Shown here: positions 21,812-50,911 of the stretch, piece by piece
Position numbering within the stretch: the first letter of the stretch is position 1
Layout of the letters: every line of letters begins with the position of its first letter
From: Terriglobia bacterium
GTDB taxonomy: Bacteria; Acidobacteriota; Terriglobia; 20CM-2-55-15
Assembly: GCA_963664115.2 (NCBI GenBank)
Contig: CAXWPJ010000012.1
Span: 525,356 to 589,355 of the forward strand
Reading direction: 5' to 3'
Length of the DNA stretch: 64,000 nucleotides
Translations under genes and position numbers: made by a program
The notes under the pieces: model-generated
Database searches by the model: none
What the model was told of the DNA's origin: nothing
Seen by the model: only the letters and a program-made list of their open reading frames with translations

Positions 21812-23063
21812 ATTCAGATCAACCGGTCGATGCAACACCTGCGTTTAATGTCTCTGCCGGATTAGCGAAGTCCAGCGTCTCACGAGGTCGCCCGTTGAGC
21901 TTCCTTGCGATCATATCCAAATGCTCCTGTGAGTGAACCGACAAGTCCGTACCTTTAGGGAAATACTGTCGGAGCAAACCGTTCGTGTTTTCGTTCGAAC
22001 CCCGTTGCCAGGGACTCCTCGGATCGCAAAAGTAAACGGCAATGTCGGTGGCCAGAGTGAACCGTTTGTGATTGGCCATTTCCAATCCGCGATCCCAGGT
22101 CAGTGTTTTATAGAGTTCGGTCGGGAGTTTGTCTGCGTGTTCGATCAGCGCGTTGATGACGGTTTCGGTTTCCTTATTCGGAACCTTCACCCGCATCACG
22201 TACCGGGAGAAACGTTCGACCAATGTCGCAATGTAGGTGTTGTTCGAACCCGCTATGAGATCCCCTTCCCAGTGTCCGGGGACCGCGCGATCTTCAACCG
22301 AAGCCGGGCGCTCACGGATCGATATCAGATCCGGGATCTGCCCGCCACCCCGGCCTTTGCGACTGGCATGCTGGGACCGGCGAATCGTGCGTTTGGTCCG
22401 TAGATGCTGTGTCAGTTCTTTCTTCAGAGCCCCGCGGGCCTGGATGAAAAGGCTGCGATAGATCGTTTCGTGTGACACGTAAAGTGACTCGTCGTCTGGA
22501 TATTCGCGTTTCAGCCAACCCGCAATCTGTCGCGGTGCCCAATCCTCCCGGAGCTTCTCTTCGACGATCCCGCGTAAGCTGGGATAGCGGATCAGTCGAC
22601 ATCTCTTCGGGCGGTGAGCCCGTTCCCATGCGCGTTCATCCGCCTCCAACGCTCGATAGTTATCATAGCCCCCATTGCGACCGATCTCCCGACTGACTGT
22701 GGAGGGTGTACGCGACAGCGACTCGGCAATTGAACGGATCGATCCCTTGGCGGCAATGCCTCGGGAAATCTCTTCACGCTCGGCGAGGGTCAGCGCCCGC
22801 TTAGAGCGGCATCGTGTCCTGGGACAGATTCCACCATACGGTGCGATCTGACCATAAACCGAAGAGCCCTCCTTTCCGAACACACGTCCGATCGCTTTCA
22901 GACTCTCTCCCCGCTGCCAGCGAATCCACACCTCGTCTATATCGGCGAGTGTGTAGCCTCGCCGCACCCGGTCTTTACTCTGTTTCTTCCGTCGTTTCTT
23001 ACGCATACACTCCACCTCCTCCTTTTAGGTACAGTGTTGCATCGATCTGTTGAGACCACCTCG
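21812..23063 (-). mobile_element. IS30-family element (transposase 21819-23015) inserted in the centre of a 40-bp repeat
   Basis: GHWEGDL, TWDRGLE and PWQRGSNENTNGLLRQY motifs. Inverted repeats TCAACnGnTCGATGCAACAC. The flanks rebuild the repeat. Confidence 0.92.
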
Positions 23064-27646: not shown

Positions 27647-28176
27647 TGTTATCCTCCGTTGCTTGATTAAGCAGTTAGACAGCAGGGGGCAGGATCGGTT
27701 TAATTCTCAACGTCCGAGAAGATGATTTGTCAGGACTTGACCCAGGGGAATTAGGGAACCGGCACACGTTCCTTCAGTTCGGTGGCGCCGGCGATGGCCG
27801 TTTGGCGTGCCCTCATACGAAAACAACAACCATAACGGAGGCTCCGTCCCTTGAGACTCCGGCCACCCTCTATCCGTTCGGCCTCTGAATTTCCTCGTGC
27901 GGAATTCTTTCGAGCAATTTTTTCAACTTCAGTAAAGGGATCATGGCGAAGTTGAAAAGCCTCTACATTCGGTTGATGGCCTGCGAAAGAAAGTGCTTCC
28001 CGACCCGAAAAGACCCCCCCAAAAAAAACTGGACGAATTACAGATATTAGGGATATTGTTTCAATCACAAATAACAGAATCTTTCCAATGTACAAATTTC
28101 TGAACGTATTCCGGCCGGAATTACGTCCTGTTTGGTTCATAGGAGCGTCGACAAACGCGAGTCTAAGGAGGACCCT

Positions 28177-29809
<1,633 letters not shown>

Positions 29810-31299
29810 TGTAGCCCGTCAGAGCATTTCGCACAGAATCCGCTGAAAAACTAAGAGACACTTTTCTAATCAGAACGATCTGAAGGAGGATCGAATGAGT
29901 GAGAAAGTGTCGGCAGAGAATCGGGTACGGGAGATTCGTCGGAAGACGAGGAAGAAGTACTCGTCGGAAGAGAAAGTGCGGATTGTGTTGGAAGGACTGC
30001 GAGGTGAAGAGAGCATCGCAGCGCTGTGCCGACGCGAAGGGATTCCGTCAAATTTGTATTACCGGTGGAGCAAGGACTTCCTGGAGGCGGGGAAGAAACG
30101 GCTGGCTGGGGACACGAAGCGGGAAGCGACATCGAGCGAAGTCACTGAATTACGCCAGGAGAACGAACAGCTGAAGCAGGTGGTAGCTGAAATACTGCTA
30201 AAGAATCGTTTTCTGAAAAAAACGTTGAACGTAACGGACTCCGAGAGCATCGATATATGAGGCAATCGGGATCTGAGAAGCTGGAGACGATCCGAGTGGT
30301 GGAAGACTCGGAGTTGTCGGTGACAGCGACCCTCCGGGAGCTGGGCGTCCCCCGCAGCACGTTCTACGGTTGGTATCGACGATACAAAGAGCGTGGCGCA
30401 GCCGGCTTGTTAGATCGGCATTCCGGCCCCGGCTTCTGCTGGAACCGGATTCCGGGACCGGTGCGGGAACAGGTGGTCGAAACCGCGTTGAACCACCCGG
30501 AAGCCTCACCGCGGGAACTGGCCTGGCAGATCACCGACACCCAGGACTACTTCATCTCCGAATCCAGCGTGTATCGGATTCTGAAGAGATGCGACCTGAT
30601 CACCAGTCCCGCATACATCGTGATGACGGCCAGCGATCACTTCCAGCAGCCAACCCGGCGTGTGAACGAACTCTGGCAAACTGATTTCACTTACTTCAGG
30701 GTCGTCGGTTGGGGTTGGTACTACCTGTCGACCGTGCTGGACGATTACTCTCGCTACATCATCGCCTGGAAGCTCTTTCAAACCATGGCCGCATCTGACG
30801 TTCAGGACACGCTGGACGTTGCACTACAGGCGACAGATGTCGGACAAGTACAAGTCCGGCACCGACCGCGATTGTTGAGCGACAACGGCCCCTGCTACGT
30901 ATCGCACGAACTCAAAGACTATTTACAACGTCGTGGTATGGAACACACCCGGGGTGCGCCCTATCACCCGATGACACAGGGCAAGATCGAACGCTATCAC
31001 CGTTCGATGAAGAACGTGGTCAAGTTGGAACACTACTATTATCCGTGGGAACTTGAGCAGGCGATCGCGCAATGGGTCGAACACTACAACCACCATCGGT
31101 ATCACGAATCTCTGAACAACGTGACACCGGCTGACGTGTTCTTCGGGAGGGATCAGCAGATCCTTGCACGTCGTGACCAGATCAAAAGAAAAACGCTGGC
31201 TCGACGCAAAATCGAGAACCTTAGGATTGGAGTGGTATAACTTCAAAACCGTCTCTTAGCTAAATGGTCTTTTTGTCCGAATTATTCTGACGACGTACA
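29810..31299 (+). mobile_element. IS3-like element, full copy with variant orfA allele
   Basis: 1490 bp with the same ends as the other copies. Confidence 0.95.
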
Positions 31300-32673
31300 C
31301 ACGTGAGTGTGAACAAAAAGGAGTCCGAGATGAAGAATAAGACGATTGCAGTCGATCTGGCAAAGAATGTTTTTCAAATTGGTGTTTCAGATCGCCCCGG
31401 GCATGTAGAGAAAACCTATCGTTTAAGTCGGGCAAAGTTTCTGGGGTTCTTTGCGAACCAGGAGCTGGCGACCGTGGTGATGGAAGCCTGCGGATCCGCC
31501 CATTACTGGGGCCGGAAGATCCGGGAACTGGGACACACGGTCGTTCTGATCTCGCCGCAGTATGTGACGCCCTACGTCAGGCGCAACAAGACCGACCGTA
31601 CGGATGTGAAGGGATTGTTGGAAGCCTATCGCGACAGCGATATTCATCCGGTCCCGATCAAGACGCTGGCCCAACAGCAACTGACCTCATTGCATCGAAT
31701 CCGTTCGGCGTGGATGCGAACCCGAACCGCACGGATCAATACGGTGCGGGGGTTGTTACGGGAGTTTGGCTACGTGATCCCGACCGGAGCGGATCATCTG
31801 GTGCCGGGGGTAATGGAGCTGATCGAAGATGCAGATGTCGTCATCCCCAGTGTCGTTCGGGAGATGTTTCACCAGGTGTGTGGCGAGATCCGTGAATTGG
31901 AATCTCGCATGCGATCGGTGGAACAAGAGTTGAAGACGCTGGCTCGGCAGATGCCTGAGGTCGCGCGTCTGACGTCGATTCCCGGCATCGGCCTGTTAAC
32001 GGCAACGGCAATGGTGGGGTTTGTTGAAAACATCAAACGATTCCGAACGTCCCGCCATTTTGCCAGTTATCTGGGACTCACACCCCGGGAACATTCCAGT
32101 GGCAACCAGCGACGCATGGGCCGGATCAGTAAGCAAGGCGATCGTTACCTCCGGATGCTGTTGGTTCATGGGGGCCGTTCCCTGTTGTGGAGTGCCCATC
32201 GAGAGGGCGCCACACCGACACCTCTCCAGCAATGGGGTCTCCAGAAACACGAGTTCCGCGGACACAACAAGGCAATCGTTGCACTGGCCAACAAGTTGGC
32301 GCGTCGCGTGTGGGCGGTTTGGAACCGTGACTGTGACCATCAGGCCCGGTATCAGGCGGCCTGACCCGGAACAGTCGGAATATCTTTTCAGCGAGCTGCG
32401 ATGAGGTTCGAGATGATGGCGTACCGGTCAGACCGGCGCGGGGCAACGCCGACAAGTCCTTTGGCCCTTAGAGGCCGTTATTTTATCGGTTGGCTCCCCG
32501 CGCGCAAATTTCCATCATGGCCCGGAACAATACAGTTCCACTTTTGAGGCCGAAGATACGGGTGCAGTCGACTAGCTACTCACCTCGTAACTTCTAGTCA
32601 GTCCTGCTGAATGCATTTTGCCGAAGAAAGCTGACGGGAGAGCTGCGCCTACTTGACAGAGGAGTCCAGATAC
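31300..32673 (+). mobile_element. IS110 family, IS1111 group (transposase 31330-32364), left end lost, inserted in a 40-bp repeat
   Basis: IAVDLAK/VMEACG/KTDRTD RuvC-like motifs, SIPGIG and GLTPREHSSG motifs, long 3' non-coding end finishing TTGACAGAGGAGTCCAGATA, joined to CAGGACTTGA. Confidence 0.9.
32390..32575 (+). ncRNA. Putative bridge/seek RNA of the IS1111 element
   Basis: Structured 3' non-coding region. CAAGTCCT (32453) and TTTATC (32482) match the target repeat, and AGATAC (32554) matches the IS end. Boundaries are approximate. Confidence 0.65.
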
Positions 32674-32744
32674 AGGACTTGAGCGGTTAGATCATCTACC
32701 GTGCGGACTGACTTCCCGTAGTCCAGTTCTAGGAATTGTCTCGG

Positions 32745-33654
32745 TCACGACTCTATCGCGAAGTCCATCCCCAATAAGCTCTCGCGCAGGAGAGCAGTGT
32801 CGCCAATATCATCGCCATATAGGACACCAATGACGGCGGCGTGGAGAGCACGAAATCGCGCCATGATTTGGATCGGCTTTTCGACCGCTCCATAGCTATC
32901 CCAAAATACTTCGCGACCCTCGGGTGGCAGAAAACCGAACGCAATAGCCAAATCCATACTGGGGCTTCCTAGGTGGATGTCGCCCCAGTCAATCACGCCG
33001 CTTGGCAGTCCAAAGTTGTCCACAAGGATATGCTCCGCTGAAAAATCGCCGTGTGACAATGTGTTCAACCGCGGTTGAAAGTCCGATGACATCTGTTCAA
33101 CGATCCGTTCCCAAGGTGAAACGTCAGCAACCAATCCCTTTCCTCGAATCGTCAGAAGACTTGAGAGCAACTGTGGAATACGTTTTCCCATGTCAGCTCG
33201 GCCAAATTTATCTCCCGGAATTTCCAGATCTCCCGGATCAATGGCATGTAGAGTTGCTAAGAAATTCGCTAAGGGAGCAGCAAGTTCCTTCCTCTGCTCT
33301 CGCGTCAATCCAACACTCAGTGCCGTGGTGCCTGGAAGAAAGCGATAGCCCGCAAACGGCCAATCATACTCTTGTGTTGGCTTACCAACCCATCTTGGTA
33401 CTGGGATAGGGAAAGGCAACTGAGCTGCAATTCGAGGAAGGACGCGAGTTTCCGTCTGCAGCAGTTCCACCGCTATCTCTCGGCGAGGAAACCGGAAAAC
33501 CCAAGTCCTGTTCACTACGTAGGCCGTATTGTCCCAACCCTCACCTAGAAGTTGGATATGCGCAGGTCGAAGCTCCGGGAATTGGCTTTCGATCAGACGA
33601 ACGGCCGCATCTGGCATCACGATATGCTCAGGTAGCCAAGGTTTACCGGTAGGC
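32745..33654 (-). CDS. Aminoglycoside phosphotransferase (APH)-family kinase
   Basis: LGEGWDN..VFRFPR, HGDFSAEHIL and GVIDWGD motifs. Start uncertain. Single-gene unit between repeats. Confidence 0.88.
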
Positions 33655-33775
33655 ATTACTGAAGAGAGTACCAGTCTGGAGTTCAACGTCCGAGAAGATG
33701 ATTTCTCGGGACTTGAGAATCATTTTCAAGGTCGGCAAATGGATTCGGCCAGATCAATCCGCCCCTTCCTGTTGG

Positions 33776-34012: not shown

Positions 34013-34459
34013 TTCTTGGACTCCGATATTGCATATTGCTGTCCATGATCGAATTGAACCGTAACCGCTTGATATCGTGAGTGATCCTGCATTAGTAGGT
34101 GGCGGGCACATAGTCATGGTTTTGACGAAATCGCAGGTATTCGTCAGGGCCGCAACATTTTGACTGAATCTGGCGCCTTAAAACTGGCCAAAACCGTGAC
34201 CCGGGCGGATGCTCGGCAGCGTGACGGCAGGACACGTCGCATTTTACTGTTTCAGTTGATGGACCGTGGCTTGGGCCTCGCACTTCCACAGTCGGAATTT
34301 TAGTTTCCTTCCGTCAAAGAACGAGAATTACCCTGAGTTCAATTCTCAAGGTCCGCGAAGATGATTTCTCGGAACTTGACCTCGGAAATCAGGGTACGGG
34401 CACCCGATCCTTCAGTTCTTCAAACCAGTTGAGGACGATGTTGATTTCGCCCGACTCAG

Positions 34460-38460: not shown

Positions 38461-39135
38461 GTCGAGTAGACCCGGGGAATTTCACCCCGAGTCCCTCACA
38501 GAACCGTGCTTGAACCTCTCGATTCACACGGCTCTTGCCAGCCGTTCGCCGACCACCTCACGGTGGGGGGCCGACACCCGATGAATCCGGCTCCTCCCGC
38601 TTGCGCGGTTGGCCAGTTCCAAAGAGCGAGCTGGCTCATCCCCTTCGCTCCCCTCCCATTACAAGAGGTTCATCACTACTACAGGATGATCCGCCCCTGA
38701 ACTCCGCATCCGTACTCTCGCCCTCGTGGTTCTGGCCACTTGTGGCTTCTCCGTTAGCATCGAAGTTCAGGTTCCCACGTTCCGCTCAACCGCCTCTTGG
38801 TAAGCTCAGGCCACCTCTCATGCCGGAGGCCACTCCGCCCGTAAACAGGTTCCGTCGGAGCTCGTCCCGCAGTATCTTCTCCCTGCGGTTTTGGCCATCG
38901 TCTTTAAATTTTCGACACTTCAACAGTGGTTCCCTTTCGGTCCTCTTCTTACCAGTCACCTGACCCAGTCATCGCCGGGCCTTTTCCTTCTGCGCTCACG
39001 ACCATGGCTTTTGACCACAGCCGCCAGAGGTGGTTTGAAACCGACGCCTGTACGCCGGCTCCGAGGGGCCCTCCCTCATCAGTTGAGTAGTTACGCACTC
39101 GATGACCTTGCGGCCCCCGAGCACTCGTGGCACAC
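38461..39135 (-). ncRNA. ORF-less group II intron (675 nt) inserted in a 40-bp repeat
   Basis: 5' GTGTGCC end, domain V GAGCCGTGTGAATCGAGAGGTTCAAGCACGGTTC, domain VI ending TCTACTCGAC. Removal restores TCAACGTCCG|AGAAGATGATTTATCGGGACTTGA. Confidence 0.9.
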
Positions 39136-42307: not shown

Positions 42308-42728
42308 TAAAGTGTGTCGCTGGAAATACCGAGAAAAACTCTGCAAAGGATACTAAGGGAGGAAGTTAGGCGCTATTAAATTCTCAGGTCAAACGTTAGA
42401 TTCTTATCGGGAGTAACCCGGCGAGAGGCGAGGGGGACAAGTGGTGATGAATGACCGGGTTACTTTCGATGAGGGCGTTTGAAGGAAGCCGCCCACAGGT
42501 CAGGCGGCTATGTAGTTTGAAAGCGGTTTCGGGTATCGACGACGTGGAGGTGGACCGAGTAAGCGCCCCGGTTGAAACCAAAAGGTCGGTTTGAAGCTGG
42601 GGATTTGAGACTCACCGTATCTGAGAATGATGACTGAAACACTGTTGTCGTGGTGAATTTGGGCAACCAGACGCACGTCGGCTGAACGTGCCCGAGCACG
42701 TCGCCAGTTCCAATGGAATGGGGGGGTG

Positions 42729-43910
42729 TCAGGAAGAATCGAATCCCCTCCTTTCAAGTGGCCACCGGATCTGGGCCGCGGTGAGCCGCTCCCCGATCGT
42801 CATGGCCGCGCCGCAGTTGGGACAGCGCCAGGAGTTGGGGCGTGCATCGGTCGATCGTTCAGATGTCTGAGTCGCAGTAGCACCTCCTAACCAATGCCGG
42901 CACAAAGGCAGCAGTGAACCACGATGGCGGGCTGAGAGAAAACCAAAGAACCGGATGCGGACGAAGCGGCGCGGCAAGGTGTGGGTGAGAAAGCGGATGA
43001 GAAACTGTTCAGCCGGAAGCGTCATGTTGCGGGGTGCGTGCTTGTGCCGGGAGTCTTTCCAGCGAAACGTAACCTGACCGTCCTGGAGATCGACGAGGCG
43101 GTGGTTGGAGATGGCGACCCGATGTGTGTAACGGGCCAGATAGTGGAGTACGTGTTTGGGCCCGCCGAATGGACGCTTGGAGTAGACGACCCAGTCGATG
43201 TGATGGAGCGGGCCGATAAAGGCCGCGAATCGTTTCGGGTCGTTTAATGGGGCCAGATCGCCATAGAAACGTAGCTCTCCCCGCTTGAACGATCGCCGAA
43301 GCCGGTCCAGAAACTTACCCCGAAACACTTCACTGAGCACCTTCACTGGAAGGAAGAACCGATGGCGGGCCCGAATCCATCGGGTGTGGTCGCCCGACAG
43401 GCCACCGGCAGGAACGACACAATGGATGTGGGGATGATGACCCAGCGTCTGACTCCAGGTATGGAGCACGCTGAGCACGCCAATCTGGGCGCCCAGATGT
43501 TTCCCGTTGGCGGCCACTTCCTGCAACGTGGCCGCGCTGGCCCCAAACAGCAGGGCATAGATCACACGTTTGTTCTGATAAGCCAACCGCGCCAGGGGTT
43601 GGGGCAGGGTGAAAACGACATGCACGTAGCGAGTCGGCAGTAACTCCCCGGTGCGATCCGTCACCCACTGGTCACGGGCACGGGTCTGACACTTCGGGCA
43701 ATGCCGATTGCGGCACGAGTTGTAGGAGAGGGCGCGATAGTCGCAGTTCGATTCCGAGCATCGGTCCCGGTGGCCTCCCAGCGCCGCGGTGCGACACTGC
43801 TGAATAGAGTTGAGGACGCGCAACTGACCGCCATCGAGCCGGCGATGCGCCACCAGGTCGGAACCATGACGACGGATGATGTCGGCCACCTCAAGGGTGG
43901 GCCGGGTCAC
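42729..43910 (-). CDS. IS91-family (Y2 HUH) transposase
   Basis: YNSCRNRHCPKCQ, HPHIHC and YLARYTHR motifs. Confidence 0.92.
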   Translation of the reverse strand: MTRPTLEVADIIRRHGSDLVAHRRLDGGQLRVLNSIQQCRTAALGGHRDRCSESNCDYRALSYNSCRNRHCPKCQTRARDQWVTDRTGELLPTRYVHVVFTLPQPLARLAYQNKRVIYALLFGASAATLQEVAANGKHLGAQIGVLSVLHTWSQTLGHHPHIHCVVPAGGLSGDHTRWIRARHRFFLPVKVLSEVFRGKFLDRLRRSFKRGELRFYGDLAPLNDPKRFAAFIGPLHHIDWVVYSKRPFGGPKHVLHYLARYTHRVAISNHRLVDLQDGQVTFRWKDSRHKHAPRNMTLPAEQFLIRFLTHTLPRRFVRIRFFGFLSARHRGSLLPLCRHWLGGATATQTSERSTDARPNSWRCPNCGAAMTIGERLTAAQIRWPLERRGFDSS

Positions 43911-44791
43911 CGCAACCCGACTTCGCTTGAATCCAATAGCGGGATCTGATCCAGCGGATTCTTTATGGCCTGTAAGTGCCGGTTCGACAGATGCAGATAC
44001 AGCGTGGTGTGCTTCAGGTCAGCGTGGCCCAACAGGAGTTGAATCGTGTAGAGATCGGTCCCGTCTTCCAACAGGTGCGTTGCGTAGCTGTGTCGCAGGC
44101 TGTGAGGTGAGATCCGCTTGCGGAGAATCGCGCGCTCACGCGCTTCCCGGCAAGCGCGCCACACCATCTTCGTGGAGATCGGTGCATCGACCCGACGGCG
44201 CCGTTTCATGCCCGGAAACAGGTAGGTCTTCGGCTTCATCCAGCGCGCGTACTGGCGCAATGTCTCCAGTAGTCGTGGACTCAGCGGCACGGCCCGGTCC
44301 CGTCCGCGTTTCCCACCCCGGATCTGAATCACCATCCGTGCGCTGTCGATGTCCTCTATTTTGAGGCACACCAGTTCACCGCGACGCATCCCGGTGCCGT
44401 AGAGCGTCATCAGCATCGCCCGCTGCATCAACGTGCGACACCCATCGATCAATCGGGCCACTTCCCCACGAGAGAGCACGACCGGCAATCGCCGATCCTG
44501 TTTCGGCATCGGTGTGTGTTCGAGCAGATAGGTCCGATTCAGTGTCTTAACGAAGAAGAAGCGTAATGCCGAGACGTGTTGCGCCACTGTCCGGGCCGAC
44601 AACCCCCGATCTCGAAACAGGTGCACCTGGTACTGCCGGATCTCGTCGGCTCCCAATCGGTCCGGCGCTCGGCGGAAATGTCGGGCAAAGTTCCCCAGGA
44701 TTCTCAGGTAGGTCTGTACCGTTCTCGGAGCGTAATTACGTCGCTGGAGCTCGTCCAGCATCAACCTGCGGTTGGGCGTCATTCGGATCAT
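43907..44791 (-). CDS. Tyrosine recombinase/integrase
   Basis: YGTGMR..E, GKRGRDR, HSLRHSYATHLLE and LLGH..TT.Y motifs. Confidence 0.92.
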   Translation of the reverse strand: MIRMTPNRRLMLDELQRRNYAPRTVQTYLRILGNFARHFRRAPDRLGADEIRQYQVHLFRDRGLSARTVAQHVSALRFFFVKTLNRTYLLEHTPMPKQDRRLPVVLSRGEVARLIDGCRTLMQRAMLMTLYGTGMRRGELVCLKIEDIDSARMVIQIRGGKRGRDRAVPLSPRLLETLRQYARWMKPKTYLFPGMKRRRRVDAPISTKMVWRACREARERAILRKRISPHSLRHSYATHLLEDGTDLYTIQLLLGHADLKHTTLYLHLSNRHLQAIKNPLDQIPLLDSSEVGLR

Positions 44792-44983
44792 AGAGATATC
44801 CCTCCTGTATCTCTACAACCCGATACCCTCCCTCAGTCAGGCCCGGTCCTTCACCACGCACGCAAAGCGTCCGCCGCGCCAGCGGCTTAGTTCAAACGAC
44901 ATTGTCGGACGTTGAGAAAAGGCCTGGGAAATGGGGGTTCTCAAGGTCCGAGAAGATGATTTATCAGGACTTGAACTCGAAAA

Positions 44984-45118
44984 TCACGGCATCGGCACCC
45001 GCTCCTTCAGTTCTTCAAACCACTTCAGGACGATGTTGATCCGGGACCGCCTCGCCCCACCGATGTCAGCTCTGCCAGCTGGAACAATCGTGATGAATTC
45101 TTCGCCGGCTGGGTGATG
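44984..45118 (-). pseudogene. 3' remnant of a Ser/Thr kinase-PD40 gene
   Basis: ...EEFITIVPAG...RINIVLKWFEELKERVPMP*. Similar tails start at 21224, 27751, 34389, 35990, 40779, 49143, 50826, 52636, 57931 and 60076. Confidence 0.75.
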
Positions 45119-50576: not shown

Positions 50577-50911
50577 CGTGAAAACGTCCTACAGCAGACA
50601 GGTCCGGACAGAGTGTCAAGTACTTCAGCACTGTCTGCCAGAATGAGTCCGAATCGCTTTTTATCTCCCAGCCATTGAACCTTTTAACCAGCGAAGACTC
50701 CTTCCAACTACAGTAAATCAGAAGGCCATGGCAGTCCACTTGGACGTATATTTGGCTTATCGGAAAGTGGTGGGTTCAATTCTCAATGTCCGCGAAGATG
50801 ATTTATCAGGACTTGAACTCAGAAATCAGGGCACGGGCACCCGCTCCTTCAGTTCTTCAAACCAGTTGAAGTGTATAACGGCTCGCTCTTCCCGTCTTAG
50901 CTTCACGTATC

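Follow-up and report, generated by a model that had tools for sequence, protein, structure and literature searches.

The window, a 64,000-nucleotide stretch (G000:C12:525356-589355) of a 4.89-Mb Terriglobia genome, carries an IS1111-type element with copies located at a single fixed position within the right arm of a 34-bp repeat. Its 3' noncoding region is predicted to encode a seek/bridge RNA which likely guides the transposase to that position by base pairing; we give this reading, the best explanation, a probability of roughly nine in ten. The sequence itself shows a transposase of the DEDD-plus-serine type, sub-terminal repeats, blunt junctions, target matches in IS1111 order, the flanks of the other copies, and the covariation of guides and flanks in relatives. 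The element is an IS1111 element of the seek/bridge-RNA type, with the ISKpn4 group as its closest kin, and this guiding mechanism is already known. The novelty lies in the target. This genus-restricted site of 14-6-14 layout has about 150 to 185 copies and bounds duplicated gene units; it is apparently undescribed and likely a gene-cassette joint, and for the element, it is likely an abundant landing site between accessory genes. Our literature searches returned no description of either the repeat or the element; most subscription journals and ISfinder lay outside these searches, and a prior name is possible. Both labeled samples containing this DNA are sponge metagenomes. Pieces of the element are also present in the RNA runs X17 and X19, a presence that cannot show transcription.

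The IS1111-type element and its transposase

The earlier note had placed an IS1111 element at 31300..32684. Its family assignment stands, on the transposase as well as on the noncoding region, but its bounds do not: the last letters of the element are ...GAGTCCAGATA, with 32672 as the final position, and the window copy is missing its first 83 bp, including the left sub-terminal repeat (Table 1). The truncated left end adjoins an IS481-like element, for which the best NCBIfam match is IS481 at 214 bits, below the cut-off of 224, and for which the IS3 model exceeds its own cut-off. This IS481-like element cuts short an open reading frame (28132-29814, + strand) for a secreted-looking protein with collagen-like G-x-y and Asn/Thr/Gly repeats.

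The 344-aa transposase scores 312 bits against NF033542, with a cut-off of 140, and its motifs are intact (D9, E52, D89, and D92, followed by the serine motif GLTPREHSSG). It thus shows the features that define IS1111 family proteins, i.e., a DEDD RuvC-like domain, a C-terminal GL-P----SG motif, and a length of 330 to 350 aa. The closest named transposases in PLSDB are those of ISKpn4, ISPa62, and ISPpu24, with 46 to 47% identity over the full length. Genome-wide, we found eight near-full copies of the element, 98 to 100% identical, plus several remnants; one intact copy, for example, occupies C5:47879-49336. Since its left end is missing, the window copy would not be mobile by itself, by analogy with ISEc11, whose movement needs both ends according to the accessible part of PMC11187229; it could still supply protein and RNA.

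Table 1. Features discussed in the text, in window positions
Feature	Position	Strand	Basis or remarks
IS481-like element adjoining the truncated left end	29810..31299	+	no target duplication
IS30-family element in the 6-bp spacer of a repeat, which it splits	about 21815-23063		
IS1111-type element, 5'-truncated copy	31300..32672	+	intact copies 1,458 bp
Transposase/recombinase ORF, 344 aa	31330..32364	+	PF01548 and PF02371 (Pfam); NCBIfam NF033542
3' noncoding region, predicted seek/bridge RNA and right end	32365..32672	+	308 nt; folds, 17-sequence consensus
Segment identical to the element's left-end letters	32412..32419	+	predicted partner of the 5' donor guide, possible sequestering helix
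Target-binding stem-loop	32437..32502	+	predicted folds; outer stem, internal loop, GGCC/GGCC hairpin 32463-32476
Target guide 1, CAAGTCCT	32453..32460	+	complementary to the top strand on the right side of the cut
Target guide 2, TTTATC	32482..32487	+	identical to the top strand on the left side of the cut; would pair with the bottom strand
Donor guide, 5' strand, CCATCAT	32512..32518	+	complement of the left end of intact copies; same register in ISKpn4
Donor guide, 3' strand, AGATA plus scaffold C	32554..32559	+	letters equal the element's right end
Right end	32653..32672	+	TTGACA (-35-like); sub-terminal inverted repeat 32658-32668; 3-4 nt extension
Right half of the interrupted repeat (target), CAGGACTTGA	32673..32682	+	sequence
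Repeat-bounded unit with APH-family phosphotransferase, and next repeat (33683-33716)	32683..33716	.	sequence
ORF-less group II intron in a repeat	38461-39135	-	Rfam RF00029, RF01999
Kinase remnants tied to repeats, examples	34343-34445, 44938-45040, 50780-50882		

Ends, junctions, and copies in the genome

In intact copies, the left ends start with TGATGGT(A)TGGACTCCTCT and the right ends close with AGAGGAGTCCAGATA, and the sub-terminal inverted repeat, 11 bp when perfect and 12 bp with one mismatch, leaves extensions of 7 nt on the left and 3 nt on the right. According to the accessible part of PMC11187229, such repeats, 7/3-nt extensions, a guide order with the complement of the top strand first, and insertion without duplication are hallmarks of IS1111. 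The right end contains TTGACA, and a consensus -10 box at 17 bp from it is absent.

The point of insertion in the repeat is TTTAT/CAGGACTTG, and the junction in the window reads blunt, TTTAT / CAGGACTTGA. The earlier note had seen the right end run into the right arm of the repeat, and the junction is indeed there; since the cut is blunt, C32673 is assigned to the target and the element ends one base before it. A shared 2-nt core of the IS621 type was rejected, as no core suits both junctions and a blunt cut does. In this genome, the left arm of the repeat, its 6-bp spacer, and then TTTAT precede seven of the eight left ends. Of the right ends, 10 of 12 continue into C(A/G)GGACTTGA. These are the flanks that had been predicted for other copies. 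The eighth left end, that of the C3 copy, lies inside an IS256 gene, where TCTAT followed by C provides a match to the left half only; insertion of IS621 at half-matches is described in the part of 10.64898/2026.08.31.748434 that was accessible. As for the remaining two right ends, one comes from a second IS1111 lineage and the other is not a true end.

TTTAT is rare among empty sites (32/149), and its presence in all seven occupied left flanks is therefore selective (p=2e-5; the guide is known to be TTTATC in six of these seven copies). Site and orientation are fixed and the target is not duplicated, as expected of IS1111. Among the joints of four contig sets we found no circle junction, in a kind of data, assembled contigs, that cannot show absence.

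A predicted guide RNA in the 3' noncoding region

The motifs on which the earlier note relied lie where it had placed them, and the two target guides match the two sides of the insertion point as it had proposed, CAAGTCCT on the right and TTTATC on the left, the last C of the latter being conserved scaffold. Its claim that a second loop, AGATAC, matches the end of the element holds in part: AGATA corresponds to the right end, the final C is scaffold, and the other donor strand, CCATCAT (from 32512), had been missed. At the position of the 3' donor strand, ISKpn4 carries ATATG, which is likewise found at its own right end (ISKpn4 ends were taken from locus L129 by reading).

The noncoding region matches no Rfam family at gathering score, and on its own it folds no better than its shuffles (z -0.5). 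Folding of this one sequence leaves the guides partly paired, with a mean unpaired probability of 0.71 for guide 1 and 0.47 for guide 2. In the consensus of 17 sequences, they appear as variable, unpaired columns flanked by near-invariant stems, in line with the expectation that the matches would not fall in paired stems. In this consensus structure, 98.2% of the cells are paired and six pairs show double changes, a level reached by 0 of 500 shuffles and compared with 32 to 53% for slid controls.

The 5' donor guide is predicted to be base paired inside the RNA, at odds with a simple picture of donor recognition. Its predicted partner is the segment at 32412-32419, where column pair 17/113 is G-C in 10, A-U in six, and G-U in one of the 17 sequences, and the single variable position of this guide tracks its RNA partner better than the DNA end. 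The helix may act as a donor-guide switch, released through RNA processing, and a short RNA with its start near 32435 would leave the donor guide free; long and short RNA forms are reported in the accessible part of PMC11187229.

From characterized IS1111/IS110 elements, it would be expected that the element leaves in circular form, that the joining of its ends creates a promoter, and that the RNA binds the transposase. To the right of the cut, guide 1 would then anneal to the top strand; to its left, guide 2 would anneal to the bottom strand. The second loop would bind both element ends by base pairing, and strand exchange would insert the element without duplication.

Guides and flanks in related elements

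Relatives of the element were taken from 13 of 61 genomes and yielded 19 distinct guide pairs. The covariation count left out two spurious C5 anchor matches, ten loci duplicating other loci or G000 copies, and loci without an RNA anchor (L039, L040, L058, L061, L068, L092, L095, and L098). Guide 1 matches the right flank at a mean of 7.12 of 8 positions in 17 families, compared with 4.62 (maximum, 5.98) when shuffled, and guide 2 matches the left flank at a mean of 4.36 of 5 positions in 13 families, compared with 2.87 (maximum, 3.78); p=2e-4 in both cases, although these values are not fully independent, since the families are kin and several have a common target. Together with the copy flanks and the loop columns, this covariation bears out the view of the earlier note that the element is an RNA-guided specialist of the repeat.

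Of the 19 pairs, seven are directed to the right arm of the repeat and two to its left arm, and the other ten match unrelated sites; guides in this transposase clade thus turn over fast. Among right-arm elements, the guide 2 variants TTTATC, TTTCTC, TTTAAC, and TTTGTC are tuned to a polymorphic base, and single-letter retuning is seen where guide TTTCTC goes with flank TTTCT (L063 and L078) and TTTAAC with TTTAA (L028). Exceptions are L072, with guide TTTGTC and flank TTTAT; L050, where the right flank matches at 5 of 8 positions only; and L028, whose left flank is no repeat arm. In the transposase tree, for which ISKpn4 was used just as a long-branch outgroup, right-arm elements fall into two subclades with good support, which share about 79% identity. 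The tree is compatible with a single origin of right-arm targeting (support 59/52), and with one for the two arms combined (p-AU 0.19), without demonstrating either.

It is very improbable that the guide matches arose by chance or were copied from flanking DNA, with no role in targeting. A lone 8-mer match is indeed common, being found in 3,047 of 20,000 mononucleotide shuffles of the 308-nt region, but the ordered 8+6 pair is rare (14/20,000, counting any cut point and either repeat orientation), it occupies the homologous loop of ISKpn4, and the guides change with the flank in the 17 families. It also seems unlikely that targeting needs a hairpin of the repeat or a protein bound to it, alongside or in place of the guide, in a dual match such as that of ISPpu10, which requires a target stem-loop according to the accessible part of 10.64898/2026.03.19.712850. 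The site is an imperfect palindrome, and IS30 copies, which are not RNA guided, enter its spacer as well; however, a change of guide alone redirects the same protein clade to unrelated, nonpalindromic sites, the predicted DNA hairpins of the repeat are weak (-5 to -6 kcal/mol), and its variable arm positions do not covary (p=0.37). The 14-mer defined by the guides occurs 28 times in the genome and 28/28 of these lie within repeats, so this genome cannot separate guide-only targeting from the hairpin reading.

The 34-bp repeat

The repeat reads TCAANGTCCGAGAA-GATGAT-TTCTCAGGACTTGA, in a 14-6-14 layout. This genome holds 149 copies at no more than five mismatches, and a profile search gave 185 matches scoring 24 bits or more, grouped into 43 clusters; large, nearly identical segments duplicated at the ends of contigs (C2, C5/C9, and C6/C11; 14 kb, 11 kb, and 7-8 kb) are possible assembly overlaps and may slightly inflate these counts. 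Within the arrays, 116 of 142 neighbors are co-oriented, at a median spacing of 2.2 kb. The site had been deemed abundant and long-lived: the former is clear from the 149 to 185 copies, while the latter applies at the depth of the genus only, with the repeat in three of four congeneric genomes (10, 85 [G002], 38 [G003], and 0 copies) and in 0 of 300 other Acidobacteriota sampled. Two genomes of one sister genus have one copy each, eight loci were found in metagenomes, and searches of viral contigs gave no match.

The core consensus of attC is RYYYAAC...GTTRRRY. Such cores are present in 0 of 149 repeats, and the loose form AAC...GTT is present in 6 of 149. Nor is anchoring at tRNA genes general, as the arrays come within 6 kb of 8 tRNAs out of 53.

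Among low-copy duplicated segments near the arrays, 25 of 94 ends fall within the repeat in both copies, compared with 2.2% by chance (the count includes some reciprocal rows and two junctions of introns). In addition, at least four units have a repeat at each end and are located in different arrays. The unit next to the element in the window is a case in point. Copies of it, 99.5% identical, are found in the C6 and C11 arrays, where the downstream neighbors differ and the upstream repeat is uninterrupted. The APH-family phosphotransferase (PF01636; 32745-33686, - strand) of this unit, which is present at three places of the genome, scores well under all named resistance-gene cut-offs.

The longest open reading frame is antiparallel to the repeat in 35 of 50 units. 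At 68 of the 149 sites, the repeat is followed by the 3'-end remnant of a Ser/Thr kinase gene of about 900 aa, and 5' remnants of the kinase also adjoin many sites, as if the kinase unit were a vector for new cassettes. Full genes of this kinase and beta-propeller-like family are few, and 5' and 3' stubs with unrelated genes between them are many. A spacer variant, TGTCGT/GGTCGT, occurs upstream of kinase starts, often back-to-back with the common type.

Other mobile elements in the repeat

Several other mobile elements reside in the same site. The second IS1111 lineage, 75% identical, carries the guides AACGTCC and TTTCTC and targets the opposite arm in the opposite orientation; 11 of 11 right flanks lie in the repeat (G002, L079-L091), and a remnant is found at G000:C10:272093. 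An IS110-family element of 378 aa, with 23% identity to the transposase described above (P0001), inserts in the spacer, with 8/8 and 7/7 junctions in the repeat. Its locus L195 (G000:C12:167560-169220) has sub-terminal repeats and a 3' noncoding region, in which ACAAGATG and TTTAAAT stand on either side of a hairpin; these predicted guides match the spacer region of the repeat, and the GACAA variant is found at 6 of 7 of its sites, compared with 35 of 149 overall. Assignment of this spacer-targeting element to IS1380 was discarded, a nested element having been misleading and the open reading frame being of the IS110 family.

An IS30 element has all seven of its near-identical copies within the repeat spacer, and further IS30-like ends adjoin other half-sites. 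The ORF-less group II intron occupies one left-arm junction in all three full copies, which is also the junction used by the second IS1111 lineage; inspection by eye showed a candidate EBS1 with complementarity to the 5' exon. An element with an IS91-family transposase and a tyrosine recombinase (about 42500-44900 in the window, - strand) is inserted directly after a repeat spacer, with two more junctions at C3:2858 and C10:411505, and a related multicopy element begins at GTT sites about 25 to 35 bp from the repeat in 5 of 6 copies examined. The IS481-like element served as a control, and since it lies in the repeat in just 1 of 18 copies, the convergence on the repeat is no mere effect of location in the arrays.

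What the repeat may be

At slightly less than even odds, the repeat is where an undescribed gene-cassette system, restricted to this genus, recombines, and it is neither an integron attC nor a canonical dif. On this reading, no fewer than three RNA-guided IS110-family elements, each programmed independently, have converged on it together with an IS30 lineage and a group II intron. The units of such a system appear to be built from Ser/Thr-kinase gene ends with new genes between them, and the guide RNAs would indicate which bases of the site are stable. The repeat could then be a double-stranded tyrosine-recombinase site, possibly acted on by host XerC/XerD, encoded at C9:863207 and C2:150455, as with the pdif modules of Acinetobacter, a proposal that we hold with somewhat less than even confidence. 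A dif site consists of an 11-bp XerC arm, a 6-bp center, and a conserved 11-bp XerD arm. The breakpoints of the duplicated segments, the units with repeats at both ends, and the co-orientation of neighbors argue for this proposal, as do the dif-like AA-6bp-TT center, the left arm agreeing with the XerC arm of the host dif at 8 of 11 positions, and the finding that XerC and XerD are the sole close tyrosine-recombinase orthologues common to G000, G002, and G003. On the other hand, the right arm agrees with the XerD arm at 5 to 6 of 11 positions only, there is no dedicated recombinase beside the arrays, homologous recombination between 40-bp repeats could yield equal breakpoints, and the repeat variants are linked to neither flank, so that no fixed crossover point was found. 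With a somewhat lower probability, the repeat is instead REP-like or otherwise passive, having spread with the kinase gene family and been reshuffled by homologous recombination and insertion sequences. The kinase 3'-end remnants at so many sites speak in its favor, and REPs are frequent IS1111/IS110 targets according to the accessible parts of PMC11187229 and PMC11208160. The copies, however, are clustered and co-oriented rather than dispersed as inverted pairs, and a repeat lies within 1.5 kb in just 1 of 21 loci of Y1 transposases (RAYT-like) in six genomes. REP/RAYT membership, for which repeats should flank the Y1 gene, was rejected on that same count.

Among tyrosine recombinases, the integron integrase, and RAYT-like genes, we identified no enzyme for the repeat. 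The tyrosine recombinase at C5:52189 (P0002) was not found in G002 and G003. Its gene (L019, G000:C5:52062-53267) is flanked by two repeats that face outward, with a kinase 5' stub after each of them, and since these two are the most repeat-rich relatives it is probably cargo. The IS91-linked integrase has no close counterpart among the 12 tyrosine recombinases of G003. The integron integrase (C9:714590; TIGR02249, 440 bits) has no repeat within 1.5 kb; it is of the classical type, with adjoining attC-like sites (L012, G000:C9:712500-715873), apart from the repeat arrays. The dif-like site of the host, to which the left arm was compared, is at G000:C2:108138 and is conserved in five relatives.

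Specialist parasites accumulate on integron attC, REP, and pdif sites, and the pile-up described here points to a fourth, uncharacterized class of site that organizes accessory genes in a sponge-associated genus of Acidobacteriota. If the site is an active cassette joint, it would provide a new gene-capture platform. The element itself offers a compact RNA-guided recombinase with readable rules, and its relatives make up an exceptionally clear natural set, with 19 guide pairs on one scaffold, single-base retuning, and a predicted helix that perhaps switches the donor guide off.

Comparison with known systems

The nearest known elements are ISKpn4, ISPst6, and ISPa25 (the IS1111-attC group) and the ISPa62 and ISPpu24 families, on the full-length transposase identity given above. 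With the ISKpn4 group, the element shares left-end letters at the sub-terminal repeat and the guide order, as described in the accessible part of PMC11187229. With ISKpn4, it shares an RNA scaffold with two GGCC-closed loops, in which the donor strands match each element's own, different ends in the same register. The sites used by the element and by the group both delimit gene units, and insertion is into one arm in either case. The guides and the target differ, however, the target here being 34 to 45 bp long and lacking attC cores, and protein identity is below 50%. Since the repeat is no attC, the IS1111-attC group serves as an analogy and counts as kin, and membership is not implied.

The seekRNA elements ISEc11 and ISPa11 (Siddiquee et al. 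2024, PMC11187229), as far as the accessible part of that report goes, have in common with our element the 3' noncoding region, the sub-terminal repeats, the 7/3-nt extensions, the lack of duplication, and natural reprogramming between close relatives. Compared with them, the second, donor-matching loop is evident here, a 5' segment is predicted to sequester the donor loop, and the two target guides are directly adjacent, with an overlap of one base at most. The IS621/ISCro4 bridge recombinases (PMC11208160, accessible part; PDB 8WT6 and 9T56) likewise have target- and donor-binding loops and a RuvC-like DEDD plus a serine domain, and sequence matches to them are weak (E about 4e-10). In IS621, according to the same part of PMC11208160, the RNA lies in the left end and a CT core is shared, whereas here the RNA is on the right and the junctions are blunt, with no shared core.

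As regards the site, the pdif/dif modules and the IS1202 family (PMC10132070, accessible part) present a similar arrangement of accessory genes between short sites with a 6-bp center and of insertion sequences specialized on such sites. Here, in contrast, the repeat is mostly in direct orientation and has no canonical XerD arm, and action of Xer is putative; IS1202 is not RNA guided. The repeat is not attC either, and the true integron integrase of this genome is located elsewhere. Yet integron attC arrays with their group IIC-attC introns (PMC3001079, accessible part) offer a parallel, in that one cassette joint is parasitized by both IS1111 elements and group II introns.
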